DNA from: Hydrogenophaga sp.
GTDB lineage: Bacteria; Pseudomonadota; Gammaproteobacteria; Burkholderiales; Burkholderiaceae_C
Reading direction: 5' to 3'
NCBI RefSeq assembly: GCF_035481345.1
Contig: NZ_DATIGV010000020.1
Location: 2,727 to 66,726, forward strand
DNA: 64,000 bases
The notes below the pieces were generated by a model. That model was not told the origin of the DNA and did not search any database. It saw only the letters and a list, made by a program, of their open reading frames with translations. The position numbers and the translations under genes are program-made. The number at the start of each line of letters is the position of its first letter. Positions within the stretch are counted from its first letter, which is position 1. Below are positions 8,120 through 43,159 of this stretch, in pieces.

Positions 8120-10858
<2,739 letters not shown>

Positions 10859-11022
10859 GCGGCTCACCAGGGTTGTTTGCGAAGACACCGGGCTGGTGAG
10901 CGTCGTTGGGGCCGGTTGAGCCCACTCAAGCCTGACGACCCGGGTCCCGTGGGGACTGGCCGCTGCAACGCTCCTTGAGAGGCGGCGATTTTAACGGGCC
11001 ACCCGCGCCGGCCACTGGTGCG

Positions 11023-12633
11023 ATGCTTGCTTTCCCCCACGCCATGCCCGCCGACGCGAACAAGCGCACACAAGAGACCCCCACCGACTGGCGCGCCCAG
11101 GAACTGCTGCTGATGCGCCAGGTGATGGCCCTGGTCGGCCGCAGCCTGGCGCCGGCCGAGGTGTTCCGCGAGATGCTGCACCTGATGAGCGAGCTGCTGG
11201 GCCTCAACCGTGGCCGCCTGGTGCTGGTGGACGATGAACCCGCGCCCGGCGGCCAGCGCCAGGCCTCGATCCGCCACGCCTACGGCCTGACCAAGGCCGA
11301 GACCGCGCGCGGCACCTACCGCTGGGGCGAAGGCATCACCGGCCGCGTGCTGGCCAGCGGCCTGCCCGCCATCGTGCAGGACGTGGACGCCGAGCCCCTG
11401 TTCCTGTTCCGCGCCGTGCGGCGCGCGCAACTGCCGCCGCAGACCGTGGCCTTCATCGCCCTGCCCGTGGCGGTGCGCGGCGCCACCGTGGGCGTGCTGG
11501 CCTGCCACCGCATCCGCAGCCGCCAGCGCCACCTCAACGACGACCTCGCGCTGCTGCGCATCCTGGCCACGCTGACCGGCCAGTTGCTGGAGCTGGAACA
11601 GCTCGTGGCCGAGCAGACGCGCCAGCTGCAGGCGCGCAACGCGGCCCTGGAGCGCGCACTGGACAGCGCCAGCGCGCGCTACGGGCTTATCGGTCGTTCG
11701 AACGCGCTGCTGCAGGCCCTGGCCGAGCTGGAGCGGGTCTCGCAATCGCAGGCCACGGTGCTGCTGCTGGGCGAATCGGGCTCGGGCAAGGAGCTGTTCG
11801 CGCGCGCCGTGCACCTGGCCAGCCCGCGCCACGACCAGCCCTTCATCAAGGTCAACTGCGCGGCCATCCCCGAGTCGCTGTTCGAGTCGGAGCTGTTCGG
11901 CCACGAGCGCGGCGCCTTCACCGGCGCGGCCGGCGCGCGCGCGGGCTGGTTCGAGCGGGCGCACGGCGGCACCCTCTTCCTCGACGAGATCGGCGAGCTG
12001 CCGATCTCGATGCAGAGCAAGCTGCTGCGCACCCTGCAGGAGGGCACCCTGGTGCGCCTGGGTGGCACGCGCGAGCAGCGCGTGGATGTGCGCCTGGTGG
12101 CGGCCACCCACCGCGACCTGGCGCGCGACGTGCAGGCCGGGCGCTTCCGCCAGGACCTGTACTACCGGCTCAACGTGGTGCCCATCCGCCTGCCCAGCCT
12201 GCGCGAGCGGCGCGAGGACGTGCGTGCCATCGCCCTGCACTTCCTCAGCCGTGCCAACCAGGCGCACCAGCGCAACGTGCACCTGGCGGCCGACGCCCTG
12301 GCCGCGCTGGAGGCACACGACTGGCCCGGCAACATCCGTGAGCTGGGCAACCTGATCGAGCGCGTGGTGCTGCTGGCCGAGGGCACGCTGGTGGACGCGG
12401 CCGCGCTGCGCCGCTTCATGCCGGAGCGCGAGCGCGCGGCCGTGGCACCGCCGTCGCCGATCGCCGAGGCCGCGCCACTGGTGCGCGAGTACCAGAGCGC
12501 GCAATCGCACAGCGCGCAGGCCCTGCGCGAGGCCCTGGAGCGCCACCAGGGCAACCAGACCCGCGCGGCACAGAGCCTGGGGCTCACGCTGCGCCAGTTC
12601 AGCTACCGGCTGCGCAAGGCGCAACTGCGCTGA
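11023..12633 (+). CDS. Sigma-54-dependent transcriptional activator with an N-terminal GAF-like domain
   Basis: ORF 10975..12633 (the track start is a TTG; the first ATG is at 11023). Walker [24 protein letters not shown] (GAFTGA loop), C-terminal Fis-type [26 protein letters not shown]. Confidence 0.85.
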
Positions 12634-12642
12634 ACGGACTTG

Positions 12643-12671
12643 CACTGTGTCGACAAAGTGTCGACACAGTG
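12643..12671 (+). promoter_or_regulatory. Perfect 13-bp inverted repeat, candidate UAS for the sigma-54 activator
   Basis: CACTGTGTCGACA-aag-TGTCGACACAGTG. It starts 10 nt after the activator stop codon and is centred about 95 nt upstream of the -24/-12 element. No T-run follows, so it is not a typical terminator. Confidence 0.6.
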
Positions 12672-12752
12672 GCGGTGGCGGGCCTCGGCGTTCAGGCCCC
12701 CGTTGCACAGCAAGCCGTTGATTTGATTCGATATTCGTCTGCTTCAAGGCCC

Positions 12753-12767
12753 TGGCACGACCGTTGC
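12753..12767 (+). promoter_or_regulatory. Sigma-54 (-24/-12) promoter
   Basis: TGGCACgaccgTTGC is an exact match to TGGCAC-N5-TTGC. It lies about 50 nt upstream of the rhodanese ATG, which has a GAGG Shine-Dalgarno. Confidence 0.8.
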
Positions 12768-12818
12768 GAAAAGCAGGTCCGGTACATCCCGCCGGCCCTT
12801 CCACTTCGCGAGGTCTCC

Positions 12819-13706
12819 ATGAACATCGACGCCACCCTGATCGCCCCTGAGCAACTGCAAGCCCTGCAAGCCAGCGAACCCGTGGTCCTCATCGACACAC
12901 GGGACCCCGAGGCCTACGCGGCGGGCCACATCCCCGGCGCGGTGAACCTGCGCGAGGTGTTCACCTACCTGGCCACCTCCACCCCCGAAGGCCTGGAGGC
13001 GCTCAAGGACACCTTCGCCAGCGCGCTCGGCGCGGTCGGCCTCTCCGGCCGGGAAACCGCGGTGTTCTACGAAGACGCCATGAACAGCGGCTACGGCCAG
13101 TCCTGCCGCGGCTACTACCTGCTCACCTGGCTGGGCTACCCGAAGATCAAGGTGCTCAACGGCGGCTTCAGCGCCTGGAAGGCCGCCGGCCTGCCCATCT
13201 CCACCGAGGCCGCCACGCCCTCGCCCGCCACCTTCCCCGAACTGCCCATGGCCGACGTGATGCTCACGCAGGCCGACGTTGAAAAGGCCCTGGGCACCGA
13301 CACCGTGCTGCTGGACGTGCGCGACGTGGACGAGTGGATCGGCGAGAGCTCCAGCCCCTATGGCAAGGACTTCGCGCCGCGCAAGGGCCGCCTGCCCGGC
13401 GCGAAATGGGTGGAGTGGTACCGCTTCATGAAGCCCTCGCCCCAGGGCCCGGTGTTCAAGACGCCCGACGAGGTGAAGGCCGAACTGGCCACCGTGGGCG
13501 TGGGCACCGAGGACAGCATCTACCTCTACTGCTTCAAGGGCGCGCGCGCCTCCAACACCTTCCTCGCGCTCAAGCAGGCCGGCTTCGCCGACGTGCGCAT
13601 GTACTTCGGCTCCTGGAACGAATGGTCGCGCGACCCCGCGCTGCCCATCGAGACCGGCCTGCCGATCAAGGCCGCGACGACCGCGCCGCTGGCCCTGGCC
13701 GCCTGA
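12819..13706 (+). CDS. Two-domain rhodanese sulfurtransferase (thiosulfate/3-mercaptopyruvate type)
   Basis: Inner ATG of ORF 12669..13706: MNIDATLIAPEQLQAL...VLIDTRDPEAYAAGHIPGAVNL (domain 1). Domain 2 carries the active-site loop YCFKGARAS. Confidence 0.9.
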   Translation: MNIDATLIAPEQLQALQASEPVVLIDTRDPEAYAAGHIPGAVNLREVFTYLATSTPEGLEALKDTFASALGAVGLSGRETAVFYEDAMNSGYGQSCRGYYLLTWLGYPKIKVLNGGFSAWKAAGLPISTEAATPSPATFPELPMADVMLTQADVEKALGTDTVLLDVRDVDEWIGESSSPYGKDFAPRKGRLPGAKWVEWYRFMKPSPQGPVFKTPDEVKAELATVGVGTEDSIYLYCFKGARASNTFLALKQAGFADVRMYFGSWNEWSRDPALPIETGLPIKAATTAPLALAA

Positions 13707-13743
13707 GCCTTCCGATTGTTCAACCCTGTCCCCGGAGACATCC

Positions 13744-14301
13744 ATGTCCAGTACCGACACCGCCGAGCCCACCACCGTCAAGGCCTGGCTGCGCCCCATC
13801 GACGCCGCCGGCCTCGCCGCCTTTGCCGCCAAGGGCAAGGCCAATCCCGGCTCGCGCGGCACCAACAAGGTCCACACCGTGATGGAGGGCCAGTACCGCT
13901 CGCTGAGCACCGTAGGCCAGCACACGCCGGTGGTGGTCGACGAGCCGCTGCACCTGTTCGGGCAGGACACCGCGCCCGCGCCCGGCGAGATCGTGCTGTC
14001 GGGCCTGGGCGGCTGCATCGCCGTGGGCGTGACGGCCGTGGCCACCTGGAAAGGCGTGAAGCTCAGCAAGCTGGAGGTCTTCCTCGAAGGCGACATCGGC
14101 AACCCCGCGGCCTGGGGCGCGGGTGGCGCGCTGGAGAAGACGCCGCCCGAGATGGGCTTCCAGGCCATCCGCGTGAAGGTGCTGGTGGAAGGCGACGCGC
14201 CGCGCGAGGTGCTGGACGAGATCGTGCAGCACGCCAATTACTACTCGCCGGTGGCCAACAGCATGCGCAACCCGATCCCCTTCGAGATCTCGATGGCCTG
14301 A
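13744..14301 (+). CDS. OsmC/Ohr-family protein (single-Cys variant)
   Basis: ORF 13744..14301 (185 aa). GEIVLSGLGGCIAVGV (first family Cys) and a C-terminal HANYYSPVANS where the family usually has C-P-x. Confidence 0.85.
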   Translation: MSSTDTAEPTTVKAWLRPIDAAGLAAFAAKGKANPGSRGTNKVHTVMEGQYRSLSTVGQHTPVVVDEPLHLFGQDTAPAPGEIVLSGLGGCIAVGVTAVATWKGVKLSKLEVFLEGDIGNPAAWGAGGALEKTPPEMGFQAIRVKVLVEGDAPREVLDEIVQHANYYSPVANSMRNPIPFEISMA

Positions 14302-14315
14302 GGCCGGAGCCGCGC

Positions 14316-15461
14316 ATGGACCTCGCCGACATCCCCCGCGACCTGCGGCTCGATTCCCCCGAGGCGGTGCTGGCCGCCGTGCGCGAGGTCGCGCACGGTC
14401 CCTTGGCCCGCGTGGCGGAGGCGATCGACCGCGAGGGCTACTACCCACGCGCCGAGTTGCAGCAACTGGCCGCCCTGGGCGCCATGAGCGCCCACCTGGA
14501 CGCGCCCGCGGGCCGCGGCGACTACCGGCTCGCGCTGCGGGCCATGGCCGAGGTCTCGCGCGTCTGCGGCGCCACCGGCTTCATGGTGTGGTGCCAGGCC
14601 GTGTGCGGCCTGTACATGCAGGCCTCGGGCAACCCGGCCCTCATGGGCGAGGCGCTCATGGCGCACGCCAGCGGCGCCTCGCTGGGCGGCACGGCCATGT
14701 CCAACCCCATGAAGAACTACGCGCAGATCGAGGGCCTGCTGCTCAAGGCGGTGCCGGTCGAGGGCGGCTACCGCGTCAGCGGCACCCTGCCCTGGGTCAG
14801 CAACCTGGGCCCGGGCCACGCCTGCGGCGCGCTGGCCGGCGTGGTGAATGAACAAGGCGAGGTGGTGCGCGAGGTGATGTTCCTCTTGCGCTGCGACGCC
14901 GACGGCGTGGAGATGCGCGAGTGCCCCAGCTTCAGCGGCATGGAGGGCACGGGCACCTTCGGGCTGCGGCTGAAGGATCACTTCATCGGCGCGGGCGAGA
15001 TCATGGCCGACCCCGCCAAGCCCTTCATCGCGCGCATCCGCGGCGCCTTCGTGCTGCTCCAGTGCGGCATGGCGGTGGGCGTCACGCAGGGCGCCATCGA
15101 CAGCATGTGGGCGGTGGAGGACCCACTCGGCCACGTCAACCAGTTCCTGGAGGACCGGCCCGCCGCCCTGCAGGCCGAACTGGACGCGCTCACGGAGCGC
15201 GTGATGCGCCTGGCCGAGACGCCCTTCGACCCCTCGGTGGATTTCTTCATCGACGTGCTCGACGCGCGTGCCCACGGCGCCGAACTCTCGCTGCGCGCGG
15301 CGCAGTCGGCCCTGCTGCACCAGGGCGCGCGCGGCTACCTCATGAGCAGCGAGGTGCAGCGCCGCGTGCGCGAGTCGCACTTCGTGGCCATCGTCACGCC
15401 GGCCATCAAGCACCTGCGCAAGGAAATCGCGCGCCTGAGTGCGGAGGCATTGCCCGCATGA
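14316..15461 (+). CDS. Acyl-CoA dehydrogenase-fold flavoprotein (possibly a monooxygenase-type member)
   Basis: Inner ATG of ORF 13716..15461 (381 aa). ACAD-like three-domain layout by eye. The C-terminal QGARGYLMSSEVQRRVRESHFVAIVTPAI occupies the position of the ACAD G.GY...RxxRDa....EGT block. Confidence 0.8.
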   Translation: MDLADIPRDLRLDSPEAVLAAVREVAHGPLARVAEAIDREGYYPRAELQQLAALGAMSAHLDAPAGRGDYRLALRAMAEVSRVCGATGFMVWCQAVCGLYMQASGNPALMGEALMAHASGASLGGTAMSNPMKNYAQIEGLLLKAVPVEGGYRVSGTLPWVSNLGPGHACGALAGVVNEQGEVVREVMFLLRCDADGVEMRECPSFSGMEGTGTFGLRLKDHFIGAGEIMADPAKPFIARIRGAFVLLQCGMAVGVTQGAIDSMWAVEDPLGHVNQFLEDRPAALQAELDALTERVMRLAETPFDPSVDFFIDVLDARAHGAELSLRAAQSALLHQGARGYLMSSEVQRRVRESHFVAIVTPAIKHLRKEIARLSAEALPA

Positions 15462-15483
15462 GCGCAGCACGGAGGGAAGTCCA

Positions 15484-16752
15484 ATGAGCGCGCCGACACT
15501 GCCCACGACTCCGATCGCGCAAGCCGCGCGCGCGCTGGCGCCGTACCGCCAGTACCTGTGCGAGGCCTGCGGCTACGTCTACGACGAGGCCCTGGGCGAC
15601 CCCGATGGCGGCCTGCCAGCCGGTACGCGCTACGAGGACATCCCCGAGGACTGGGCCTGCCCGCTGTGCGGCGTGACGAAGGCCGACTTTCGCCTCTACG
15701 ACGCGCCCGACATGGAGGCTTTGCGCGCGCGCAGCGACCCGGGTGTGGCCGTGGCCACGCGCGGCGGCGAGGCGGGCGTGGTCATCGTGGGCGCGGGCCG
15801 CGCGGGCTGGCAGACGGCCGAGGCCCTGCGCGCCCTGAATCCCACGCTCCCCATCACCCTGGTGAGCCAGTGCGCGGGCGACGTCTACGACAAGCCGCTG
15901 CTGTCCGTGGCCATGGCGCGCGGCCTGGCCGACGGCGCGCTGGTGCGCGAGCGCGGCGCCGACGCCGCCGCGCGCCTGGGCGTGCGCCTGCTCGCGCACA
16001 CCGACGCGATCCGCATCTGCGCCGACACCCACACCCTGCGCACCACCCGCGGCAACCTGCGCTACGCGCACCTGGTGCTGGCGCACGGCGCCACGGCGCG
16101 ACTGCCCGAGGGCCTGGCGCCCGAGCTGTGCTGGCGCGTGAACCACCTGGCCGCCTACCAGCGCCTGCGAGCCCGTCTGGGTGATGCGCCGCGCGAGCTG
16201 CTCATCGTCGGCGCGGGCCTGATCGGCAGCGAACTCGCGAACGACCTGGCCATTGGCGGCCACCGCGTCACCCTGCTCGACACCTGCGAACAGCCGCTGG
16301 CGCGCTGGCAGGACCTGGGCGTGGGCGAACAACTGCTGGACGCCTGGCGCGACCTCAGCATCCGCTTCGTGGGCGGCGTGCAGGTGCGCTCGCTGGAGCG
16401 CGTGGGTGGGCGCTACCGCCTCACCACCGCCGATGGCCAGCGCTTCGCGGCCGACGAGGTGATCGTGGCCGCCGGCCTGCACACGCCGACGCGCCTGGCG
16501 CGCAGCGCGGGCCTGGACTGGGAGAACGGCATCCGCGTGACGCCACACAACCTGCGCACCAGTGTCGATCGCATCCACGCGCTGGGCGACTGCATCGCCA
16601 TCGACGGCCAGCCCAGCCGCTACATCGAACCCATCGCCCGTCAGGCGCGCGCCATCGCGGCCGACATCTGCGGTGCCGAGCCCGCGCCCTACGTGCCGCG
16701 CGCGCCGGTGGTGCGGGTGAAGACGACGTCGCTGCCGCTCACGCTGCACTGA
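15484..16752 (+). CDS. Rubredoxin domain fused to an FAD/NAD(P)H pyridine-nucleotide-disulfide oxidoreductase (rubredoxin-reductase type)
   Basis: Inner ATG of ORF 15439..16752. YLCEACGYVYDE...WACPLCG is the rubredoxin CxxC/CPxCG pair. It is followed by VVIVGAGRAGW (FAD GxGxxG) and LLIVGAGLIGSELA (NAD GxGxxG). Confidence 0.85.
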   Translation: MSAPTLPTTPIAQAARALAPYRQYLCEACGYVYDEALGDPDGGLPAGTRYEDIPEDWACPLCGVTKADFRLYDAPDMEALRARSDPGVAVATRGGEAGVVIVGAGRAGWQTAEALRALNPTLPITLVSQCAGDVYDKPLLSVAMARGLADGALVRERGADAAARLGVRLLAHTDAIRICADTHTLRTTRGNLRYAHLVLAHGATARLPEGLAPELCWRVNHLAAYQRLRARLGDAPRELLIVGAGLIGSELANDLAIGGHRVTLLDTCEQPLARWQDLGVGEQLLDAWRDLSIRFVGGVQVRSLERVGGRYRLTTADGQRFAADEVIVAAGLHTPTRLARSAGLDWENGIRVTPHNLRTSVDRIHALGDCIAIDGQPSRYIEPIARQARAIAADICGAEPAPYVPRAPVVRVKTTSLPLTLH

Positions 16753-16770: not shown

Positions 16771-17247
16771 TCAGAACGAGAGCTTGCTCTGGCCGTTGTC
16801 GAACCAGGCGGTGTCGAAACCCTCGCGCAGAAGGACAACTTTTGTCGCTGAGGTCGACACGCCCTGAGCGCGCTCAAGGTACTTGGCCAGCGTGCTCCGG
16901 TCCTCGCTCAGCAAATGGGAGATGCCCTCGCATTCGCACTGCGCGATCAACTTGAAGTCGTCCTTCACCCTGACACGGTCGTCATCCGGGTCGCGCTGAA
17001 GCCGGCGAATCAAGAGGCCGCACGCCATCGCGTGATCGATGTTGAACGGCAGCACGATGAAGCTGCGCAGGGGAAGGTCGTTGATGGCTTGGCGGACCTG
17101 AAACTCCGACACCGCGACGGTCGACAGGTACATCGGCACCTGTCGGTGCACACATTCCTTGTAGTACTGCACCGCCGCAGCGTAATGCGGACGGGACGGG
17201 TCGCTGAAACTGATGAGAAAACTGGTGTCGAGCAAGACGCTGTTCAA
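16771..17247 (-). CDS. PIN-domain nuclease-like protein (VapC-like, 158 aa)
   Basis: ORF 16771..17277. The likely start is the TTG at 17247, which overlaps the upstream stop (TTGA). The four acidic PIN positions are visible: LLDTSF, VSEF, KDDFKLIAQ, LLSEDRS. Confidence 0.7.
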   Translation of the reverse strand: MNSVLLDTSFLISFSDPSRPHYAAAVQYYKECVHRQVPMYLSTVAVSEFQVRQAINDLPLRSFIVLPFNIDHAMACGLLIRRLQRDPDDDRVRVKDDFKLIAQCECEGISHLLSEDRSTLAKYLERAQGVSTSATKVVLLREGFDTAWFDNGQSKLSF

Positions 17248-18014
17248 TGCTCGCCCCCGCGGATCTGATCGACCCATTCGGTGGCGTTGCCAACGTCCTT
17301 CCAGGCATCCTGGCCACGCCTGTTAAGGCGCGCCAACTCTTCCTCATCCACACGAGGGGCGTACTCCACGAACTCGACGAGGCGCGCGTTGCGCAGCTCC
17401 CGTGTGAGAACGTTGTATTCCGCTCGAATCCGCAACATCGCAATCTTGTAGAGGCGATTGGATGTGTCATCACGCAGAGCGTCCCTTTCGGCCGTCACCA
17501 ACAACGTTGACCCATCGGGCAGGCGAACGTGGGCATTGGGTTTGGCCGTTCCACCCAAGTTCTGAACCTCTCCTCGGACATAACGTTCGACCTGCACCCA
17601 TTGATCCGCGTCGTCCGCGTGGAAATCCGTCTCTCGGCTGACGACGATCGGGCGCGACAAGAAAGGAGCTGAAATGCGGAAGCTGAGGTCTGCATTCTTC
17701 TTCACCAACTTTTGCCAGCTTTCGAACACCGAGCGACGCTTGGCGTCAACTGCGTCGAGCCGCTCGTTGGCCGCCAAGTGCTGAAGGTCCTTCAACAGCT
17801 TGGGGGCAGCAATGGGTACCGTTTCAATGGCCAGCGACCCCGAGCGAATCGCCACGTCGAGACCTTGCGGGTCGACCTCTTTCGTGTCACCTCGCAAAAA
17901 AGTGGCTACGTCGCCGGCAAAGTCCACCAAGCTGGACAGGCGCACCCGATCGGGACTGGCTTCATAGCCACCCGATCGGTCGATCAAGGCCACTGTGATC
18001 CGCTGTGCTTCCAT
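17244..18014 (-). CDS. Hypothetical 256-aa protein, translationally coupled to the PIN gene (antitoxin position)
   Basis: ORF 17244..18014. No family recognised. The C-terminal tail EEELARLNRRGQDAWKDVGNATEWVDQIRGGEH resembles tails of PIN-associated antitoxins. Confidence 0.65.
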   Translation of the reverse strand: MEAQRITVALIDRSGGYEASPDRVRLSSLVDFAGDVATFLRGDTKEVDPQGLDVAIRSGSLAIETVPIAAPKLLKDLQHLAANERLDAVDAKRRSVFESWQKLVKKNADLSFRISAPFLSRPIVVSRETDFHADDADQWVQVERYVRGEVQNLGGTAKPNAHVRLPDGSTLLVTAERDALRDDTSNRLYKIAMLRIRAEYNVLTRELRNARLVEFVEYAPRVDEEELARLNRRGQDAWKDVGNATEWVDQIRGGEH

Positions 18015-18063
18015 GGTCGGGGCATTGTAGGACTGCCCTTCACCCAGCGTCCGTTTGTTTGTT

Positions 18064-19104
18064 CTACGCAGCCGCCCGCCGCCGCAGCGCCACCACCCGC
18101 TCCCCCGTCTCCAGCGACCTCGCCCGCAGCTGCCCGCAGCCCGCGTCCACGTCCTGCCCGGCCGAGTGGCGCAGCTTGGTGAGGATGCCCTGGCGGTGCA
18201 GGCGGCGCGCGATGTCGGCGGCCTTCTCCCAGGCGGGGCGCTGGAACGGCAGGCCGTCGACGGCGTTGTAGGGAATGAGGTTGAGCACGCCGTAGCGCCC
18301 GCCCAGCAGGCGCACGATGCCCTCGACTTCGTCGTCGCCGTCGTTCACGCCGTCGAGCAAGGTCCACTGGTATTGCACCGGGTAGCCGGTGGCGCGCGCG
18401 TAGGCGTCGGCGCGCTCCACCAGGTCCTGCGGCGTGAGGCGCGGCGCGCGCGGCAGCAGTTGCTCGCGCAGCCCGGCCTTGGTGGTGTGCAGCGACAAGG
18501 CCAGCGCGGGCTTGACCGCGCCGCGCGGCAAGGCCTCGAAGGCGCGTTCGTCGCCGACGGTGGAGAACACGAGGTTCTTGTGGCCGATGCCGCCCACGGT
18601 GCCCAGCAGCTCGATGGCCTCGAGCACCGCCTCGAGGTTGTGCGCGGGTTCGCCCATGCCCATGAAGACGACCTTGTTCACCGGCCGGCCCGCGCGCGCC
18701 AGCGCCACCTGGGCCACGATCTCGGCGCTGCCGAGCTGGCGCAACAGGCCGCCGGTGCCGGTCATGCAGAAGGCGCAGCCCACGGCGCAACCGACCTGCG
18801 TGGACACGCACAGGCCGCCGCGCGGCAGGCGCACGCTCTCCACGGTCTGGCCGTCGCGCAGGGCCACGAGCAGGCGGGCCGAGCCGTCCTCACCCGGATG
18901 TTCGGCCTGCAGGCGCGCGAGGCCCGCGAGCGCCTCGCGCAGCGCGGGCAGGGCCTCGAACAGGGCTTTGGGGAAGTGGTGCTCGGGCTTGCGCCGGCCG
19001 GCCTCGGGCGGCAGGGCGTACACCCAGTGGCGCAGCACGCGCTGCGCATGCAGCGGCCCAGCCCCGAGGGCGGTGAGGCGGTGGCGCAGTTCGTGCAATT
19101 GCAT
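18064..19104 (-). CDS. RlmN/Cfr-family radical SAM methyltransferase paralog
   Basis: ORF 18064..19104 (346 aa). GGLCVSTQVGCAVGCAFCMTG contains the CxxxCxxC cluster plus the upstream mechanistic Cys. The C-terminal DVDAGCGQL carries the second mechanistic Cys, as in E. coli RlmN. Confidence 0.85.
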   Translation of the reverse strand: MQLHELRHRLTALGAGPLHAQRVLRHWVYALPPEAGRRKPEHHFPKALFEALPALREALAGLARLQAEHPGEDGSARLLVALRDGQTVESVRLPRGGLCVSTQVGCAVGCAFCMTGTGGLLRQLGSAEIVAQVALARAGRPVNKVVFMGMGEPAHNLEAVLEAIELLGTVGGIGHKNLVFSTVGDERAFEALPRGAVKPALALSLHTTKAGLREQLLPRAPRLTPQDLVERADAYARATGYPVQYQWTLLDGVNDGDDEVEGIVRLLGGRYGVLNLIPYNAVDGLPFQRPAWEKAADIARRLHRQGILTKLRHSAGQDVDAGCGQLRARSLETGERVVALRRRAAA

Positions 19105-19198
19105 GGGGCGGGGATTGTCGCCCAGGGGCGGACCATGTGCGCCGGAGTCGGCCCATGCACCCGCGCCGTTCGCGTGGTCGCGCCTGCGGCGCAGTGGC

Positions 19199-20869
19199 TC
19201 AACCCGGGGACGCGGCGAGCAAGGCGGCCAGCGCCGCCGGCCACTGCGCGGACGAGCGGCAGATCCGCACGCTGGCGCGCCCCAGCGCCGCCGCCAGCGT
19301 GGCGGCCTCGCCAGGCGCCAGCACCAGCGCGCGCACGCCCACGCCGCGCCCCTCGGCCTCGCGTGCGGCGCGTTGCAGGTCGGCCGGGAGGTAGGCTGGG
19401 TCGTGCACGTCCACGTCGTGCGGCTCGCCGTCGCTCAGCAGCACGATCAGCCGTCGGCGGCCCGGGTGGCGGCGCTGGTCGAGCGCGCTCAGGTGCAGGG
19501 CGTGGCGCAGCGCGGCGCCCATGCGCGTGGAGCCGCCGCCCCGCAAAGCCGGCAGGCGCGCGAGCACGTGCTCGTCCCAGTGGCGCAGGCAAGGCATGTC
19601 GATGCGGTGGCGGCCCCGACTCGAAAAAGCCCACAGCGCGCAGCGGTGACCCAGCGCGCGCAGGGCCTGGACCGTGGCCAGGGCCCCGCGCTGCAGTTGC
19701 GCGAGCGGCTCGCCCTCGGTGGAGGCCGAGGCGTCGAGCAGCAGCAGCACCGCCAGCGGCGGCGCCGGGCGTTGCGGTGATCGGTAGACCCGCGCCTCGG
19801 GCGTGCGGCCCGCGAGGCGGTCGAGCCGCGCCTCCACCAGCGCGGCGGGGTGCAACTCCTCGCCCTGGGCGCATCGCCCGCCGCCCGCGCGGCGCTGCAG
19901 GCTCAGGCGGGCAAGACGGCGTTGCAGGCGGTGGCGTTCGGCGCGCGGCGGCGGCGCGGCCTCCCCTGCGGGCGGATCGCCACCGAACACGCGGCACCAG
20001 CCGGGCCGGTAACGCGCGATGCGGTGGTCCCATTCGGGATAGATCGCGTCGGGTTCCAGCGCCACCGGTGTGGGCGAGGCCGACGGCGCGTCGTCGCTGG
20101 GCGGCGCGGCGTCGGCGTTCAGGGGGGCCTCGTCGCGGGGCGGCTCGTCATCGGGCCGCCAGAGGTGGCTGTTGTCGTCGCGGTAGCGCGCGGACACGGT
20201 GTAGGTGCGGGCGTTGAACGGCAGCCGCATCTGGCCGATGTCGTGTCCGAGCCGCGAGGCGGCCTCTCGCACGCGCGCCGGTGTGTCGAGCGCGAGGCCG
20301 CCGTCGGGCGCGAAGAACTCCCGCCGCACCTTGGCGACCCAGGCGTGCGGGTCGTCGTGATCGGGGTTCAGCAGGCTGGCCGCGAGGCGCGCGAGCAGGT
20401 CCTCGAAGCCGCTGCCCTGGCGCGCGGCGGCCTCGGTGTGGAAGGACCACCACACGGCGCGCAGGCCGGGCAGCTCCTGGGCCGCGAGCCATTCCACGCG
20501 CGCGTCCTCCAGCACACCCAGCAGGGCCTGCTGCACGGGCTTGAGTCCCGCGCGCGCCTGCGCTTCACCACCGAAGCGCCGGTGCGCTGCGGCGTGCGCG
20601 GCGATGGCCAGGCTGAGGTCCGGCGCGGGCTCGGCCCAGGCGGGCAGGTGCAGCACGGCCGCGGCGTCGTGCGCGCGCTCGGCCTCGCCGTGGTCGTTGC
20701 CATCGCCGAGGTGCCCGCCACCATCGCGACCGACCACGATCACGGCGCGCTGCGCTGCGTCCTTCGCGCCACCGCGCCACTCGACGCGCCATTGCCCGCC
20801 CCACAGCGCGTGCGCCAGGGCGCGCACCTGGCCCGGCAGGTCGGGCGGCGCGGCACCCGGGCGCGACAT
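19199..20869 (-). CDS. NorD/CbbO-type VWA-domain activation protein
   Basis: ORF 19199..20869 (556 aa). Central YPEWDHRIARYRPGWCRV is the NorD hallmark. The C-terminal VWA domain has LLLLDASASTEG (MIDAS DxSxS) and LIVLLSDGEPHD. Confidence 0.85.
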   Translation of the reverse strand: MSRPGAAPPDLPGQVRALAHALWGGQWRVEWRGGAKDAAQRAVIVVGRDGGGHLGDGNDHGEAERAHDAAAVLHLPAWAEPAPDLSLAIAAHAAAHRRFGGEAQARAGLKPVQQALLGVLEDARVEWLAAQELPGLRAVWWSFHTEAAARQGSGFEDLLARLAASLLNPDHDDPHAWVAKVRREFFAPDGGLALDTPARVREAASRLGHDIGQMRLPFNARTYTVSARYRDDNSHLWRPDDEPPRDEAPLNADAAPPSDDAPSASPTPVALEPDAIYPEWDHRIARYRPGWCRVFGGDPPAGEAAPPPRAERHRLQRRLARLSLQRRAGGGRCAQGEELHPAALVEARLDRLAGRTPEARVYRSPQRPAPPLAVLLLLDASASTEGEPLAQLQRGALATVQALRALGHRCALWAFSSRGRHRIDMPCLRHWDEHVLARLPALRGGGSTRMGAALRHALHLSALDQRRHPGRRRLIVLLSDGEPHDVDVHDPAYLPADLQRAAREAEGRGVGVRALVLAPGEAATLAAALGRASVRICRSSAQWPAALAALLAASPG

Positions 20870-21678
20870 CAGAAGCTCGCGCCCACCAGCGCGCGCAGGC
20901 TGGGCGCGAGCTGCGGGTCGTCGCTCAGCGGGTCGGCGATGGCCTGCATGGCGGCCGCGCGGAGCGGCAGGCCCGCGCGGTGCAGCAGCGCGGCGTGCAC
21001 CAGCATGCGCGTGGAGGCGCCCTCGTCCAGGCCCTCCTCACGCAGGCGGCGCGTGCGGATGGCGAGCTGCACCAGGCGCGTCGCGAGCGCGCCATCGACA
21101 CCGCCTTCGCGCGCCACGATGGCGGCCTCCGCCTCGGGCGCCGGGTAGTCGAAGCCCAGGGCCACGAAGCGCTGGCGCGTGGAGGGCTTGAGCTCGCGGT
21201 GCAGGCCCTGGTAACCGGGGTTGTAGCTGACCACGAGCTGGAAATCGGGGTGCGCGCGCAGCAGCTCGCCATGGCGCTCCAGCGGCAAGGCGCGGCGCGT
21301 GTCGGCCAGGGGGTGCAGCAGCACCGTGGTGTCGGCGCGCGCCTCCATCAGTTCGTCGAGGTAACACAGCGCGCCGTGCCGCGCGGCCAGGGCCAGCGGC
21401 CCGTCCATCCAGCGCGTGCCCTCGCCGTCGAGCAGCCAGCGGCCCGCCAGGTCGCCCGCGCTCAGGTCCTCGTGGCAAGCCACGGTCACCAAGGGCAGCT
21501 TGAGCCGCCAAGCCATGTGCTCGACGAAGCGCGTCTTGCCGCAGCCCGTGGGTCCTTTGAGCAGCACCGGCAGGCGCGCGGCGCGCGCGGCCTCGAAGGC
21601 CGCGACCTCCTCAGCCACCGGCTGGTAGAAGGGCTCCTCGGTGAGGCGCCAGTCGGCCAGCGGATCGGCGTGGGACAC
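20869..21678 (-). CDS. CbbQ/NirQ/NorQ-type MoxR AAA+ ATPase
   Basis: Tail of ORF 20869..21987. The GTG start at 21678 lies 2 nt after the amiE stop. Walker A GPTGCGKT, Walker B LCYLDEL, DFQLVVSYNPGYQG. Its stop overlaps the norD-like ATG (TGATG). Confidence 0.85.
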   Translation of the reverse strand: MSHADPLADWRLTEEPFYQPVAEEVAAFEAARAARLPVLLKGPTGCGKTRFVEHMAWRLKLPLVTVACHEDLSAGDLAGRWLLDGEGTRWMDGPLALAARHGALCYLDELMEARADTTVLLHPLADTRRALPLERHGELLRAHPDFQLVVSYNPGYQGLHRELKPSTRQRFVALGFDYPAPEAEAAIVAREGGVDGALATRLVQLAIRTRRLREEGLDEGASTRMLVHAALLHRAGLPLRAAAMQAIADPLSDDPQLAPSLRALVGASF

Positions 21679-21680
21679 GC

Positions 21681-22721
21681 TCAGCGGTGGCCCGCGGTGG
21701 CCGGGTTGGGGATGCCCTCGATCGGGCACTCCTCCGTGCCCACCATGGGCCGCGTGATGGCCTCGACCGCTTTCTGCGTGCCCTCGGGGTCGTTCACCCA
21801 CTTGCCGTAGAACTCGTAGGGGCAGGCGGCCACCCCCTTGTCGCCGTCGCGCGAGTTGATCATGCCCGTGTAGCCGCGGTGCAGCAGCTTGAACAGGTGG
21901 TTCTCGCTCTGCGCGTTCTTGCGGAAGTCGCGGATCAGGCTTTTCGAGAGCGCGGCGTACTGCACGCCGTAGTCCTCCTCGCCGCATTCGCCGAGCGTGC
22001 GGCCGTCGAAGCCGATGAGGGCGCTGTGGCCGAAGTAGCTGTACACGCCGTCCCAGCCGGAGGCATTGGCCACCGCCACGTAGCTGTTGTTGGCCCAGGC
22101 CATGGCCTTGGCCATCAGCACCTGCTGGTCTTTCGCGGGGTACATGTAGCCCTGGCAGCGCACGATGAGTTCGGCGCCCTTCATGGCGCAGTCGCGCCAG
22201 ATCTCGGGGTAGTTGCCGTCGTCGCAGATGATGAGGCTCACCTTCAGGCCCTTGGGGCCCTCGCTCACGTAGGTGCAGTTGCCGGGGTACCAGCCTTCGA
22301 TGGGCACCCAGGGCATGATCTTGCGGTACTTCTGCACGATCTGGCCCTGGTCGTTCATCAGGATGAGCGTGTTGTAGGGCGCCTTGTACGGGTGCTCCTC
22401 GTGCTGCTCGCCGGTGAGCGAGAACACGCCCCAGACCTTGGCCTTGCGGCAGGCCTCGGCAAAGATCTCGGTCTCGGCGCCAGGCACGGTGGACGCGGTC
22501 TCGTACATCTCCTTGGCGTCGTACATGATCCCGTGCGTGCTGTACTCCGGGAAGATCACCAGGTCCATGCCGGGCAGGCCCTGCTTCATGCCGACCACCA
22601 TGTCGGCGATCTTGCGCGCGTTGTCCAGCACCTCGGCCTTGGTGTGCAGGCGCGGCATCTTGTAGTTGACGACGGCCACGCCAACGGTGTCGGCGCTGCT
22701 TGAAATGTCACCGTGCATCAT
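21681..22721 (-). CDS. amiE: Aliphatic amidase (nitrilase superfamily)
   Basis: ORF 21681..22721 (346 aa). Collinear with P. aeruginosa AmiE along nearly its whole length: [62 protein letters not shown]. Confidence 0.95.
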
Positions 22722-22737
22722 GGCTCGGGTTCCTTGT

Positions 22738-23079
22738 TCAGTGGCTGATCATCCAGGGGCGCTTGGAGGGAAACGCCTTTGCGCCATTCGGTGCGGTCAC
22801 CGTGGCCTTGCTGCGCCCGGGGCTGCAACACCCGCAGCCCGCGGGGTGTTTCAGGCGCGCGTAGTCGCCCGATCGTTGGGGCTCGTGCCGCGCGCGCTCG
22901 TTGATGCCCATGGCCGTGCGCGTGGCGCCGTCCATGAGCGCCAGGCGCGGCGCGGTGGCGAACACGCGCGGCGAGGCGGTGCCGCAGTCGGGGCAGAAGG
23001 CCGGATCGTTGCGCTCGCTCAGCGAGCGGTAGGCGTCGAAGCCGCCGCAGGCCGGGCAGGCGTAGTCGTAGGTCGGCAT
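22738..23079 (-). CDS. fmdB: FmdB-family zinc-ribbon putative regulatory protein
   Basis: ORF 22738..23079 (113 aa). [14 protein letters not shown]...CPDCG zinc ribbon, immediately downstream of the formamidase. Confidence 0.8.
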
Positions 23080-23095
23080 GGGCGGCTCCGCGCGT

Positions 23096-24322
23096 TCAGA
23101 GGTCCGGAGACAAAGGCATCTGGATCGAGCCGTCGATGTGCTTGATCGGGCCGCTCGCGTTCGGGTTGATGTCGAAGTCGAAGATCTGCGTGGGCAGCCA
23201 CAGCGTGGCGCAGGCGTTGGGCACGTCGACCACGCCGCTGATGTGGCCCTGCACCGGCGCCGTGCCCAGGATGGAGTAGGCCTGCGCGCCCGAGTAGCCG
23301 AACTTCTTCAAGTACTCGATGGCGTTGAGGCAGGCCTGGCGGTAGGCCACGTTCACGTCCAGGTAGTACTGCTTGCCGCTCTCGTCGACGCTGATGCCTT
23401 CGAAGATGACGTAGTCGTCGTAGGTGGGCTTGATGGGGCTGGGCTTGAAGATGGGGTTCTTGATGCCGTACTTGGCCATGCCGCCCTTGATGAGCTGCAC
23501 CTTCATGTGCACCCAGCCGGCCATCTCGATGGCGCCGCAGAAAGTGATCTCGCCGTCGCCCTGGCTGAAGTGCAGGTCACCCACGGAGAGGCCGGCGCCG
23601 TCCACGTAGACCGGGAAGAAGATCTTGGAGCCGCGCGAGAGGTCCTTGATGTCGCAGTTGCCGCCGTGCTCGCGCGGGGGCACGGTGCGCGCGCCGGTGG
23701 CGGCGGCCTTGGCCAGTGCGTCGCCGGTGAGCTTGCCCATGTGCGCGGTGCCCGCGAACGGCGGGTTGGCCAGGCCGCTGGTGGCGGGGTCGGAGTCGAT
23801 CAGCGCCTGCTCGCGCGTGTTCCACACCTCCAGCATCTTCGGGTCGGGCAGGCAGCCGATGAGGCCGGGGTGGATGAGGCCCGCGTACTTCACGCCGGGC
23901 ACGTGGCGCGAGGTGGTGAACATGCCGTGGAAGTCCCAGATGGACTTCTGCGCCTGCGGGAAGTGCTCGGTGAGGAAACCACCGCCGTTCTTCTTGCTGA
24001 AGAAGCCGTTGAAGCCCCAGAGGCTGTCGTCCTTGGCGCCGATGTCGAGCAGGTCGACCACCAGCAGGTCGCCAGGCTCCGCGCCTTTCACGCCCACCGG
24101 GCCACTGAGGTAGTGCACCGTGGTCAGGTCGATGTCGCGCACGTCGTCGGCGCTGTCGTTGTTCTTGATGAAGCCGCCCGTCCAGTCGTAGGTCTCGAGC
24201 ACGAAGTCGTCGCCGGGATTGACCCAGCAGGCCATGGGGATGTCGGGGTGCCAGCGGTTGTGCACCATCTCGTTGGTGGGCGCGGGCTTGGTGAGGTCGA
24301 CCTTGATCAGGGTGTCGGGCAT
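23096..24322 (-). CDS. fmdA: Formamidase (acetamidase/formamidase family)
   Basis: ORF 23096..24322 (408 aa). HNRWHPDIPM, DWTGG.I.NNDSADDVRDIDLT.VHYLSGPV.V.GAEPGDLL match the FmdA family. Confidence 0.92.
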   Translation of the reverse strand: MPDTLIKVDLTKPAPTNEMVHNRWHPDIPMACWVNPGDDFVLETYDWTGGFIKNNDSADDVRDIDLTTVHYLSGPVGVKGAEPGDLLVVDLLDIGAKDDSLWGFNGFFSKKNGGGFLTEHFPQAQKSIWDFHGMFTTSRHVPGVKYAGLIHPGLIGCLPDPKMLEVWNTREQALIDSDPATSGLANPPFAGTAHMGKLTGDALAKAAATGARTVPPREHGGNCDIKDLSRGSKIFFPVYVDGAGLSVGDLHFSQGDGEITFCGAIEMAGWVHMKVQLIKGGMAKYGIKNPIFKPSPIKPTYDDYVIFEGISVDESGKQYYLDVNVAYRQACLNAIEYLKKFGYSGAQAYSILGTAPVQGHISGVVDVPNACATLWLPTQIFDFDINPNASGPIKHIDGSIQMPLSPDL

Positions 24323-24368
24323 GGCGTGGCTCCTGGGTGGAAGGGGATCGATTGGGGTTGGGGGAAAT

Positions 24369-25058
24369 TCAGACCGACAGGTAGGCCTTGATGCGCTGCT
24401 GGTCGGTGTTGGCGCGTTCGGTCTCGTGCACCAGGCGCCCGCCCTCGATGACGAACAGGCGGTCGGCGACGTCCATGGCGAACGAGAGCACCTGCTCGGA
24501 GACCACGATGGTGATCTTTCGCATCTTGCGGATCTCGTTGAGCGCCTTGGCGATGTCCTTGATGATCGAAGGCTGGATGCCCTCGGTCGGCTCGTCGAGC
24601 AGCAGCACCTTGGGGTCGGTGACGAGCGCGCGTGCGATGGCGAGCTGTTGTTGCTGGCCGCCGGAGAGGTTGCCGCCCTTGCGGCGGCGCATGTCCCACA
24701 GCACGGGGAACAGCGCGTAGATCTCCTGCGGAATCGCCTTGTCCTTCGCGTTCTCCAGGCCGGTCTGGATGTTCTCTTCCACCGTCAGGGTGGGAAAGAT
24801 CATGCGGCCCTGCGGCACGTACGCCAGGCCTTTGGCCACGCGGCGAAAGCTCTCGTCGCGCGTGAGGTCCTGGCCGGCCACGCTGATGTGGCCGCTCTTG
24901 GTGGGCAGCACGCCCATGAGGGCCTTGAACAGCGTGGTCTTGCCCATGCCGTTGCGGCCCATGATGGCCACCGCCTCGTTCTCGCGCGCCTCGAAGCTGA
25001 TGCCGTGCAGCGCCTCGCTCTGGCCATAGGAAACGAACAGGTCCTTGACTTGCAGCAT
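24369..25058 (-). CDS. urtE: Urea/short-chain-amide ABC transporter ATP-binding protein (UrtE-like)
   Basis: ORF 24369..25058 (229 aa). Walker A GRNGMGKTT, signature LSGGQQQ. It is the last of five Urt-order genes. Confidence 0.85.
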   Translation of the reverse strand: MLQVKDLFVSYGQSEALHGISFEARENEAVAIMGRNGMGKTTLFKALMGVLPTKSGHISVAGQDLTRDESFRRVAKGLAYVPQGRMIFPTLTVEENIQTGLENAKDKAIPQEIYALFPVLWDMRRRKGGNLSGGQQQQLAIARALVTDPKVLLLDEPTEGIQPSIIKDIAKALNEIRKMRKITIVVSEQVLSFAMDVADRLFVIEGGRLVHETERANTDQQRIKAYLSV

Positions 25059-25070
25059 GCGGCTTCTCCT

Positions 25071-25814
<744 letters not shown>

Positions 25815-37345: not shown

Positions 37346-37788
37346 CAGTACTGCTTGTAGGGCAGGAACTTGCCCGACATCACGATGTTCACGCGGTCGC
37401 CATTGGGGTCGGCCTGGCGCTTCATGTCCATCTTGAAGTCGATGGCGCTCATGATGCCGTCGCCGAATTCTTCGTGGATGAGTTCCTTGAAGGTGGTGCC
37501 GTAGACGCTGACCAGTTCGTAGAAGCGGTAGATCAGCGGATCGGTGGGCACGCTGGTGGGCAGCGAGCCCTTGTAGGGCACGACCTGCAGCCACTTCTGC
37601 TCGTCCGCCGTCAGGCCGAAGATCTTGCCGAGCGCCTTGGCCTGTTCGGGCGTGGCGGTCATCTGGCCCAGGCACAGGGCCGTGGTCCATTCCTTGGACT
37701 TGCCGACCTTCTTGGCGACGTCTTCCCACTTCAGGCCCTTGCTGACCTTGGTGGAGACGATCTTCTCGGTGACTTCAATGCGACTCAT
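37345..37788 (-). CDS. cynS: Cyanase (cyanate hydratase)
   Basis: ORF 37345..37788 (147 aa). Full-length CynS-like protein: N-terminal HTH-like domain and C-terminal YRFYE...[10 protein letters not shown]...RV.I...GKFLPY. Confidence 0.95.
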
Positions 37789-37905
37789 GTTTGCCTCTTG
37801 AGTAGTGGTGGAGTGAAAGGGTTGAACCGGGGGTGCCGCGGAACCGGCTTTGCCGGGCCGCTGGCGCCGTCCCCCGTGGGGGAAGCCGCGCAGCGGCGCA
37901 GGGGG

Positions 37906-38712
37906 TCAATTCGCTCTCGCTCGAGAGACGAGGAAGTCGACGATGTGGTTGCGCAGCTCGTAGTAGCCGTCCAGGTGGTGCAACTGGGCGCGTGTGCGTT
38001 CGCGCGGCAGGGTGTTGCTCACCACCTCGGCCAGGCCGCCGGGCTTGTAGACGCCCTCCACCTCGCGGCCGTTGCTCATGAGCAGGATGCGGTCGGCCAG
38101 CAGGATGGCCTCGTCCACGTCGTGGGTGATCATGAACACCGTCTGGTGCGTCTCGCGCACGATGGACATGAGCTCGTCCTGGATGGTGCCGCGCGTGAGC
38201 GCATCCAGCGCGCCGAAGGGCTCGTCGAGCAGCAGCATCTTGGGCTGGATCGCGAAGGCGCGCGCGATGCCCACGCGTTGTTTCATGCCACCCGAGAGTT
38301 GCGACGGCTTCTTGTCGATGGCGTGGCTCAGGCCCACCATGGCCACGTACTTCTCGACCTGCGCGTCGACCTCGGTCTTGTTCCACTCGGGCCAGCGCGA
38401 CTTCACCGCGAAGGCGATGTTCTGGCGCACGCTGAGCCAGGGCATGAGCGCGTGGCCCTGGAAGACCACGCCGCGCTCCAGGCTGGGGCCGGCGATCTCG
38501 CGACCGTCCATGAAGGCGTGGCCCTCGCTGGCCGTGTCCAGGCCGGCGAGCACGTTGAGGATGGTCGTCTTGCCGCAGCCGCTGTGGCCGATGATGCAGA
38601 CGAACTCGCCCTTGTCGATGCCGAAGTCGACGCCGGCGAACACGGGCTTGTCGGACTGGTAGGCCTTGGCGAGGTTCTCGACCTGCAGGAAGGCGCGGGG
38701 GTGGGCGCTCAT
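37906..38712 (-). CDS. cynD: Nitrate/cyanate/bicarbonate-type ABC transporter ATP-binding protein (CynD/NrtD-like)
   Basis: Inner ATG of ORF 37906..38781 (268 aa). GHSGCGKTT, LSGGMKQRV, LLLDEPFGALD. Confidence 0.9.
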   Translation of the reverse strand: MSAHPRAFLQVENLAKAYQSDKPVFAGVDFGIDKGEFVCIIGHSGCGKTTILNVLAGLDTASEGHAFMDGREIAGPSLERGVVFQGHALMPWLSVRQNIAFAVKSRWPEWNKTEVDAQVEKYVAMVGLSHAIDKKPSQLSGGMKQRVGIARAFAIQPKMLLLDEPFGALDALTRGTIQDELMSIVRETHQTVFMITHDVDEAILLADRILLMSNGREVEGVYKPGGLAEVVSNTLPRERTRAQLHHLDGYYELRNHIVDFLVSRARAN

Positions 38713-38770
38713 GGCGGTGCCTTTGGTTTGCGTTGAGGGTGCCGCGGAGCCGAGGCCCTGTTGCCGGCTG

Positions 38771-41098: not shown

Positions 41099-41114
41099 TG
41101 CAAGCACCGGGCCA
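41099..41114 (-). promoter_or_regulatory. Sigma-54 (-24/-12) promoter of the cyn operon
   Basis: The minus strand reads TGGCCCggtgcTTGCA (GG and GC correctly spaced, one mismatch to TGGCAC), about 35 nt upstream of the cynA-like ATG. Confidence 0.6.
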
Positions 41115-43110: not shown

Positions 43111-43159
43111 GGCACAGGCGCTAGCAACGCCTGTGCCAAGTTGGTGCGTGGTGCCCGGT

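Follow-up and report, generated by a model that had tools for sequence, protein, structure and literature searches.

Only two enzyme systems that degrade thiocyanate are known (PMC5328954; bioRxiv 10.1101/2024.12.18.629290): thiocyanate hydrolase, encoded by scnABC, which represents the carbonyl sulfide (COS) pathway in Thiobacillus thioparus, and the copper enzyme thiocyanate dehydrogenase (TcDH), which represents the cyanate pathway in Thioalkalivibrio (PMC5328954). Both are found in clusters with accessory genes, which comprise a NitT/TauT ABC transporter, sulfur-transfer proteins, SQR and a cyanase in the case of scnABC, and an ABC transporter, a sigma-54-responsive two-component system and fccAB in that of TcDH (PMC5328954). 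Use of thiocyanate as a nitrogen source has also been reported for Methylobacterium and Ralstonia (PMC5328954), and no genes for this use by heterotrophs were found in the literature searched. Here we analyze an operon at positions 12819–16752 of a 64-kb stretch of Hydrogenophaga DNA (69% GC; hereafter, the window), which lies downstream of the gene for a sigma-54 enhancer-binding protein (EBP) and encodes a rhodanese, an OsmC-family protein, a protein with the acyl-CoA dehydrogenase (ACAD) fold and a rubredoxin-fused reductase. The operon is the Comamonadaceae version of a widespread gene cluster without a characterized counterpart, and we propose, at a rough probability of 0.45, a pathway in which this cluster would convert thiocyanate to cyanate and sulfane sulfur for nitrogen scavenging, the substrate being suggested by gene neighborhoods.

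Conservation of the cluster across genomes

The distribution of the cluster was assessed with an alignment of the ACAD-like family, scanned against one genome per species, which returned at least 583 relatives, of which the best 80 were used. These 80 closest loci, all at 60% identity or more, come from the Burkholderiales and, in one case, from Methylobacterium. A metagenome scan seeded with a distant clade contributed 80 more loci, for an overall set of 164 in which 84 distant loci show 41–49% identity. Presence counts refer to those loci with adequate flanking DNA, which are 46 in the Burkholderiales set and 29 in the distant set.

At the invariant core of the cluster, a gene for a one-Cys OsmC protein is followed by that for the ACAD-fold protein. 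The former is located within 7 kb of the latter, typically directly upstream, in 78 of the 80 Burkholderiales loci and in 77 of the 84 distant ones, and the OsmC–ACAD–reductase synteny is preserved in essentially all 80 Burkholderiales loci. The first-pass annotation of the window had treated the four operon genes and the activator as a single unit, and this grouping is borne out by the co-conservation of the EBP (41/46), the OsmC protein (46/46) and the reductase (46/46), with the rhodanese following in part, as an accessory member (31/46). A cyanase gene is found within 7 kb of the pair in 23 of the 46 Burkholderiales loci and an NMT1_2 binding protein in 27, and unbiased clustering of neighboring open reading frames (ORFs) identified a cyn operon, with genes for a NitT/TauT-family binding protein, a permease, an ATPase and cyanase, which is convergent to the unit in roughly one of every two Burkholderiales loci. 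In the distant set (n = 29), the OsmC gene is present in all 29 loci, accompanied by a binding protein in 25, a rhodanese in 20, a divergent TetR-type regulator in 19 and a cyanase, again within 7 kb, in 14.

Across the 84 distant loci, gene content is constant and gene order is shuffled. In one of these loci a divergent tetR-type gene precedes consecutive genes for OsmC, the ACAD-like protein, rhodanese, binding protein, permease, ATPase and cyanase; in another, rhodanese and cyanase genes are encoded on one strand, followed by OsmC, ACAD, DUF302 and rubredoxin reductase genes on the opposite strand and by EBP, permease, binding protein and ATPase genes in the initial orientation. Polymorphum gilvum harbors a single-strand operon with ABC transporter, OsmC, ACAD, rhodanese, ferredoxin-type reductase and cyanase genes, and in Thiobacillus (37% identity) a cynSDBA operon is divergent from a GAF-containing EBP gene, which is followed by OsmC, ACAD and DUF302 genes and a free-standing rubredoxin. 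On an Azospirillum-like metagenome contig, the rhodanese gene gives way to one for an FCSD-like sulfide dehydrogenase, and a Methylobacterium locus (L083) contains only the TetR, OsmC, ACAD and rhodanese genes. The persistence of the same content under variable order, across both Alphaproteobacteria and Betaproteobacteria, constitutes strong evidence for one functional unit. A DUF302 protein is also encoded after the ACAD-like gene in six loci with rubredoxin or rubredoxin reductase genes (e.g., at positions 9173–9565 of L081), but the window has no such gene.

The NMT1_2 binding proteins linked to the pair fall into two classes with a deep split between them (L082, L084, L092, L102, L130 and others). 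Type I proteins are always encoded directly upstream of OsmC, in the order ATPase–binding protein–permease; they are far from any solved structure and show a weak likeness to the SsuA family (84 bits, with a cut-off of 163.5). Type II proteins are CynA-like and close to NrtA/CmpA (E ~1e-50 to NrtA), and their genes occur in the order binding protein–permease–ATPase–cyanase. The presence of both classes in the same locus, as seen in L092 and L102, suggests that the type I system takes up something different from cyanate. Among the recurrent neighbors of the pair, no sqr, pdo, sox, ssu or dsz genes were detected, and scnABC and TcDH genes were likewise not seen there, with no dedicated reference-sequence search of the window or the genomes. 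We consider a linkage of the OsmC and ACAD-like pair to cyanate and sulfur metabolism highly probable, and the joint occurrence of importers, cyanase and rhodanese or sulfide dehydrogenase is most simply accommodated by thiocyanate.

Encoded proteins and proposed pathway

Profile annotation with Pfam confirmed the five genes, their domain assignments and their location on the forward strand, and the intergenic distances of 37, 14 and 22 nt within the operon had been correctly given. The ACAD-fold protein (14316–15461, +), a core member of the cluster and its presumed key enzyme, belongs to a small distinct subfamily (124 clusters at E < 1e-30 among 1.84 billion representatives). Its best matches are Hydrogenophaga proteins with 94–96% identity, and all sources name its relatives only as "acyl-CoA dehydrogenase family" or "AidB-like". 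Among Pfam domains, only Acyl-CoA_dh_N passes its threshold (38.9 bits), with Acyl-CoA_dh_2 reaching 18.5 bits versus a required 22.7. The AF2 model (pLDDT 95) shows an ACAD fold, and the best Foldseek matches in the PDB are short-chain and other acyl-CoA dehydrogenases, at ~20% identity and a TM score of ~0.8. The catalytic Glu is absent, as the profile alignment to ACADs stops short of the YEG motif, in place of which the family presents REAxFVAIVTP, and the helix-G segment carrying the alternative IVD/LCAD-type Glu is deleted. The loss of the catalytic Glu thus indicates that this protein is not a true acyl-CoA dehydrogenase. The flavin-contact motifs are kept in altered form (LSNP for TEP and PWVSN for WITN), and the family displays invariant Cys84 and Trp92 residues and a near-invariant Cys93. 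The combination of an obligatory OsmC partner with the essentially invariant Cys84/Cys93 is unique to this subfamily. No significant match to a curated model of the ACAD-fold group D flavin monooxygenases (DszC, SfnB, HsaA, HpaB-like) was obtained, the best scores being 22.5 bits versus 450 for HsaA and 19 versus 650 for p-hydroxyphenylacetate hydroxylase.

The second core member (13744–14301, +) is a one-Cys protein of the OsmC family (PF02566, 73 bits), the closest solved structure of which is that of a hypothetical protein (2opl). Its Cys91 is conserved in all 154 sequences compared, and the position of the second OsmC cysteine is occupied by a serine, Ser168, in at least 93% of them. The protein thus has an OsmC fold without the pair of peroxidatic and resolving cysteines typical of OsmC/Ohr thiol peroxidases. 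The tandem-domain rhodanese (12819–13706, +), the start codon of which is at 12819 and not, as first annotated, at 12820, presents two Pfam rhodanese stretches and a C-terminal loop, C238-F-K-G-A-R-A, conserved at 99%. Among 105 orthologues, Cys96 in the N-terminal domain is conserved at 100% and Cys238 at 99%, and the sulfur-transfer element that had been read from the sequence is hence real, this rhodanese being a dedicated orthologue with both cysteines invariant for practical purposes. The last gene of the operon (15484–16752, +) encodes a rubredoxin (74 bits) fused to a NorW-like NADH:rubredoxin reductase (Pyr_redox_2, 145 bits), with an Fe(Cys)4 site formed by two CxxC motifs (Cys26/29/59/62) and two GxGxxG motifs, GAGRAG and GAGLIG, for FAD and NAD. 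This protein does not reach the NorW equivalog in NCBIfam (213 bits, with a cut-off of 392), and the reductases of the cluster belong to the class that feeds oxygenases. None of the four operon proteins matches a curated NCBIfam equivalog or family above its cut-off, in agreement with the earlier remark that the operon resembles no pathway with a name, and literature searches found no description of the cluster.

In the proposed pathway, a small anion would be brought into the cell by the ABC importers, and the ACAD-like enzyme, receiving electrons from NADH through the reductase and its rubredoxin, would oxygenate or oxidatively cleave the S–C bond of thiocyanate. The sulfur may be trapped as a persulfide on Cys91 of the OsmC protein or on Cys84/Cys93 of the ACAD-like protein, to be then relayed to the rhodanese; a chemically plausible route would involve a sulfenyl thiocyanate on the OsmC cysteine, hydrolyzing to persulfide and cyanate. 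The cyanate would finally be passed to the cyanase of a cynABDS operon, yielding ammonium. In this scheme we infer the thiocyanate substrate, the direction of electron flow and the sulfur relay, as well as the ligand of the activator discussed below.

The sigma-54 regulatory unit and its surroundings

The product of the EBP gene (11023–12633, +) combines a GAF domain (52 bits) with an AAA+ Sigma54_activat domain (PF00158, 241 bits), in which the Walker A motif is found at residue 250 and GAFTGA at residue 297, and with an HTH_8 domain (37 bits). It does not reach the curated cut-offs for NifA (TIGR01817; 450.2 bits versus a cut-off of 528.85) or for NorR (NF003451; 349.5 bits versus 476, in a match spanning only residues 145–522 and excluding the GAF domain). 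In EBP orthologues encoded beside the same operon in very distant loci, the GAF domain retains 45–77% identity, implying a common ligand. FisR-type activators carry conserved sensory cysteines in their N-terminal domain. The GAF domain of the EBP has a single cysteine, Cys161, which is kept in 48 of 61 orthologues, the other 13 having Val (10) or Ala (3), and this lack of conservation argues against the FisR-like sensing of sulfide or sulfane sulfur that had been contemplated for this activator.

Downstream of the EBP gene, a palindrome with fully complementary arms, CACTGTGTCGACA-aag-TGTCGACACAGTG, occupies positions 12643–12671, beginning 9 nt after the EBP stop codon; the first-pass annotation had located this inverted repeat of 13 bp correctly, giving its distance from the stop as 10 nt. 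The putative upstream activating sequence (UAS) within it consists of two TGTCGACA octamer palindromes (12648–12655 and 12659–12666), located 11 bp apart. An exact TGGCAC-N5-TTGC element, as had been noted, provides the -24/-12 sigma-54 promoter (TGGCACgaccgTTGC, 12753–12767, +), 81 nt past the end of the palindrome and 96 nt from its center. The boxes lie at -105 and -94 relative to the -24 element, within the range of roughly 80–150 bp upstream expected for a dyad UAS. The tract between UAS and promoter is AT-rich (40% GC, versus 69% in the window) and contains a match to the integration host factor (IHF) consensus WATCAR-N4-TTR (AATCAACGGCTTG, 12711–12723, -), which is a consensus match only. 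The sequence of the palindrome does not fit, on manual inspection, the NorR (GT-N7-AC) or NifA (TGT-N10-ACA) operators, both of which were rejected. Neither an intrinsic terminator nor a sigma-70 promoter was detected between positions 10800 and 17400.

With up to one mismatch, the sigma-54 motif is found 8 times in the window, versus 7.7 expected, and 2 of these matches are exact; the promoter motif alone is therefore not beyond chance in a single window. The only two TGTCGACA octamers in the window are those inside the palindrome. The significance of the regulatory sites derives from their conservation in related loci. TGG[CT]A[CT]-N5-TTGC is kept in 69 of 73 related Burkholderiales loci, 50–114 nt before the first gene of the operon, and TGTCGACA-like boxes with at most one mismatch are found 70–170 bp upstream of the -24 element in 61 of these 69, with two or more boxes in 43 of the 69 and a typical spacing of 11 bp, which corresponds to one helical turn. 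In some loci, unrelated genes (1.3–5 kb) have been inserted between the EBP gene and the operon, and the promoter and the boxes have remained with the operon. Spacing and conservation together define the operator as two TGTYGRCA palindromes on the same helix face, of which the 13-bp arms in the window are a local extension. Such insertions were noted in ten loci, from Hydrogenophaga-like and other Burkholderiales genomes, and include genes for an ECF sigma factor, CMD, DJ-1/PfpI and T-Q ester domain proteins and DUF7660; being varied and not conserved, these genes were rejected as members of the unit.

The regulatory unit is in all likelihood of an ordinary, well-formed sigma-54/EBP kind, with a newly defined operator. 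The comparison among loci provides good support for sigma-54 dependence, which is presumed to hold in vivo, and the EBP domains and the conserved promoter and UAS are consistent with the self-contained, inducible unit first suggested for this region. In such a unit, the GAF domain would sense a small ligand, plausibly cyanate or the substrate of the pathway, and the activator would bind the two TGTCGACA boxes, ~100 bp upstream of the promoter, and open the latter upon bending of the DNA at the IHF-like site.

The putative partner operon of the unit in the window, cynABDS (37348–41064, -; detected with tblastn), encodes a CynA-like binding protein (39646–41064), a permease, an ATPase and a cyanase (37348–37788) that passes the NCBIfam cut-offs. 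A sigma-54-like promoter candidate for cynA (TGGCCCggtgcTTGC, 41100–41114) is located ~50 nt upstream, and TGGCCC-N5-TTGC recurs at about this distance from cynA in many Comamonadaceae loci. A common regulon for cynABDS and the unit was rejected on account of the lack of TGTCGACA boxes at cynA. Directly upstream of cynA lie the genes for a receiver/LuxR-type response regulator (ending at 41210) and a PAS histidine kinase (41899–43110, -), and the other exact TGGCAC-N5-TTGC of the window (43124–43138, -) is found just upstream of the latter. Activation of a sigma-54 promoter would not be expected of a LuxR-type regulator.

Between the unit and the cyn operon, a nitrogen-scavenging island (18064–25814, -) harbors genes for an aliphatic amidase (21681–22721, -; 716 bits) and a formamidase, FmdA (23096–24322, -; 749 bits), together with a CbbQ/NorQ-type AAA ATPase (20869–21987, -), a VWA protein (19199–20869, -), ORFs that weakly match an ABC ATPase query (24369–25814, -; 27–28% identity) and an RlmN-like radical SAM methyltransferase (18064–19104, -; NF011034, 584 bits). 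Sigma-54 control, the amidase, formamidase and cyanase neighborhood and the reported use of thiocyanate nitrogen fit an assimilatory, nitrogen-scavenging role. The RlmN-like gene recurs shortly downstream of the unit in some 13–16 related loci (e.g., at 10389–11456 of L010). A Nit1C-like cyanide cluster downstream of the unit was rejected, as its CN_hydrolase is the aliphatic amidase and its radical SAM protein the RlmN-like enzyme. Immediately upstream of the EBP gene lies metH, for the B12-dependent methionine synthase (8120–10888, -), in an adjacency seen in only seven close relatives and probably not functional. The three ORFs that follow the operon (168, 256 and 275 aa; 16771–18811, -) gave no match in Pfam or NCBIfam, lack conservation beside the unit and may be spurious in this high-GC DNA.

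Alternative readings and related systems

Several observations weigh against a thiocyanate pathway. The proteins are tied to thiocyanate by gene neighborhoods, with no link through annotation, and no more than about half of the loci with adequate flanks have the cyanase next to the pair. In the window, the cyanase lies 20 kb from the unit under a sigma-54-like promoter of its own, and no TGTCGACA doublet was found upstream of cynA in the window or its relatives. Part of the adjacency in the Burkholderiales could reflect inherited gene order, and some loci, such as L083, maintain the OsmC–ACAD–rhodanese arrangement without reductase, transporter or cyanase. Furthermore, flavin binding by the ACAD-like protein is predicted from the retention of motifs, the OsmC protein could serve in simple peroxide protection, and the CynA-like transporters could carry cyanate only.

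These observations leave room for other substrates. A rather improbable one is cyanide, which the ACAD-like protein and the reductase, acting as a cyanide monooxygenase, would convert to cyanate, with the rhodanese as a parallel sink (CN- to SCN-), the OsmC protein clearing the peroxide of uncoupled turnover and the cyanase completing the route. Rhodanese is the classic cyanide sulfurtransferase, and reviews draw a route through cyanide monooxygenase and cyanase that is not known to have an assigned gene. The linkage to cyanase, a reductase class that feeds oxygenases and the formamidase and amidase encoded in the window would also agree with it. HCN, however, crosses membranes by diffusion, yet dedicated ABC importers accompany the pair in 25 of the 29 distant loci. 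Moreover, the rhodanese is strongly conserved, with two invariant cysteines, and can be replaced by an FCSD-like sulfide dehydrogenase, which suggests sulfur as a product, and in Pseudomonas pseudoalcaligenes the assimilation of cyanide does not proceed through cyanate (PMC6627978).

It is likewise unlikely that the cluster is a module for the detoxification or assimilation of reactive sulfur (sulfide, polysulfide or persulfide) or of organosulfur compounds, as first suggested for the window, and that its proximity to cyanase is coincidental. A rhodanese, a thiol-based OsmC protein and an FCSD-like gene can occur in a single locus, the type I binding proteins are weakly SsuA-like, and ACAD folds act on sulfur substrates, as reflected here in a weak match to 3-sulfinopropanoyl-CoA desulfinase (30 bits; 5af7 at Foldseek rank 50). 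DszC, MsuC and the sigma-54 regulator SfnR provide precedents. Set against this, cyanase is found within 7 kb in about half of the loci of two very different sets, in several arrangements and even in the same operon, a frequency far above that expected by chance for a single-copy gene. None of the sqr, pdo, sox, ssu and dsz genes recurs beside the pair, and the GAF cysteine is not conserved. The sulfur component of the sulfur/redox module initially proposed is thus retained, and a generic reactive-sulfur detoxification is not, since the cyanase and the NitT/TauT importers point to a compound containing C, N and S.

More doubtful is a role as helper of cyanate assimilation, in which the cluster would import cyanate, and the OsmC, ACAD-like and rhodanese proteins would repair or prevent damage, such as carbamoylated thiols, with no new substrate involved. 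Cyanate reacts with thiols, and type II transporters and cyanase share one operon with the pair in many loci (e.g., L123 and L125). Nonetheless, an NADH-dependent redox chain and a sulfide dehydrogenase would be unexpected for decarbamoylation, a second class of binding protein is encoded beside the pair and co-occurs with a complete cynABDS in L092 and L102, and canonical cyn operons function without these genes (PMC6627978). Lastly, another S–C–N or Se–C–N compound (selenocyanate, an organic thiocyanate, an isothiocyanate or a thiocarbamate) would obey the same neighborhood logic as thiocyanate, and TetR-type regulators, common in xenobiotic pathways, in 19 of the 29 distant loci and weak, below-cut-off matches of the OsmC and rhodanese proteins to NCBIfam "(seleno)protein" families are compatible with it, but the transporters are of the NrtA/CmpA/CynA small-anion class and no further evidence favors a specific alternative, making such a substrate a poor candidate.

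The main outcome of this analysis is a concrete assignment, open to testing, for a cluster found in many genomes. Thiocyanate ranks among the major pollutants of effluents from gold mining and coking, and it also arises naturally when cyanide is detoxified or glucosinolates are broken down. Should the proposed pathway prove true, the traceable gene pair would supply candidate genes and markers for metagenomes and bioreactors, and a new reaction would be added to the ACAD and OsmC folds. Whatever the substrate, a cluster with at least 583 species-representative matches is governed by what appears to be a clean sigma-54 switch, and its defined operator (TGTYGRCA twice, 11 bp apart) would be useful for regulatory studies and biosensors.

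Partial likenesses to several described systems place the cluster in context. With NorR-NorVW of Escherichia coli it shares a GAF-type sigma-54 activator, a rubredoxin and a NorW-like NADH:rubredoxin reductase, but no flavodiiron protein is encoded here and the NorR and NorW scores remain below cut-off. The presumed use of the ACAD fold for sulfur chemistry, with loss of the catalytic Glu, has parallels in DszC (partner reductase DszD), MsuC (partner reductase MsuE, regulator SfnR) and 3-sulfinopropionyl-CoA desulfinase, and the sfn/msu system likewise combines a separate NADH-dependent reductase with sigma-54 control. Unlike these ACAD-fold sulfur enzymes, the protein described here has no NCBIfam match near cut-off, and its partner is of the rubredoxin/NorW type and not an FMN reductase. 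The OsmC and rhodanese proteins induced near sqr in Rhodococcus DTDB (PMC5157978) do not correspond to the present operon, and the "thiocyanate desulfurase" described elsewhere (PMC8061750) is TcDH. The nearest regulatory analogue is cynF-cynABDS of P. pseudoalcaligenes CECT5344, the divergent EBP/cynABDS layout of which is also that of the Thiobacillus locus. CynF differs from the EBP described here in its PAS-like N-terminus, in place of a GAF domain, and the intergenic repeats displayed in Figure S1 of its description (PMC6627978) are not TGTCGACA; no OsmC, ACAD or rhodanese genes accompany cynF-cynABDS in that organism.

The closest functional comparison is with the scnABC and TcDH clusters. 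The same set of accessory functions (importer, sulfur transfer, sulfide oxidase and cyanase) is present in all of them, and the TcDH clusters also feature a sigma-54-responsive regulator, so that in the present cluster the key enzyme seems to have been replaced by a non-orthologous one, with an OsmC protein, an ACAD-fold protein and an NADH/rubredoxin reductase in the position of the nitrile-hydratase-like ScnABC or of the copper TcDH. We therefore suggest, still more tentatively than the pathway itself, that the pair, the rhodanese and the reductase may form a third thiocyanate-breaking system, flavin- and cysteine-based and unrelated to thiocyanate hydrolase or TcDH, which would be present in at least several hundred bacterial species and could supply the missing genetic basis for the use of thiocyanate nitrogen by heterotrophs such as Methylobacterium and Ralstonia. 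In contrast to the scnABC and TcDH systems, the system proposed here would be cytoplasmic and looks assimilatory instead of energy-yielding.

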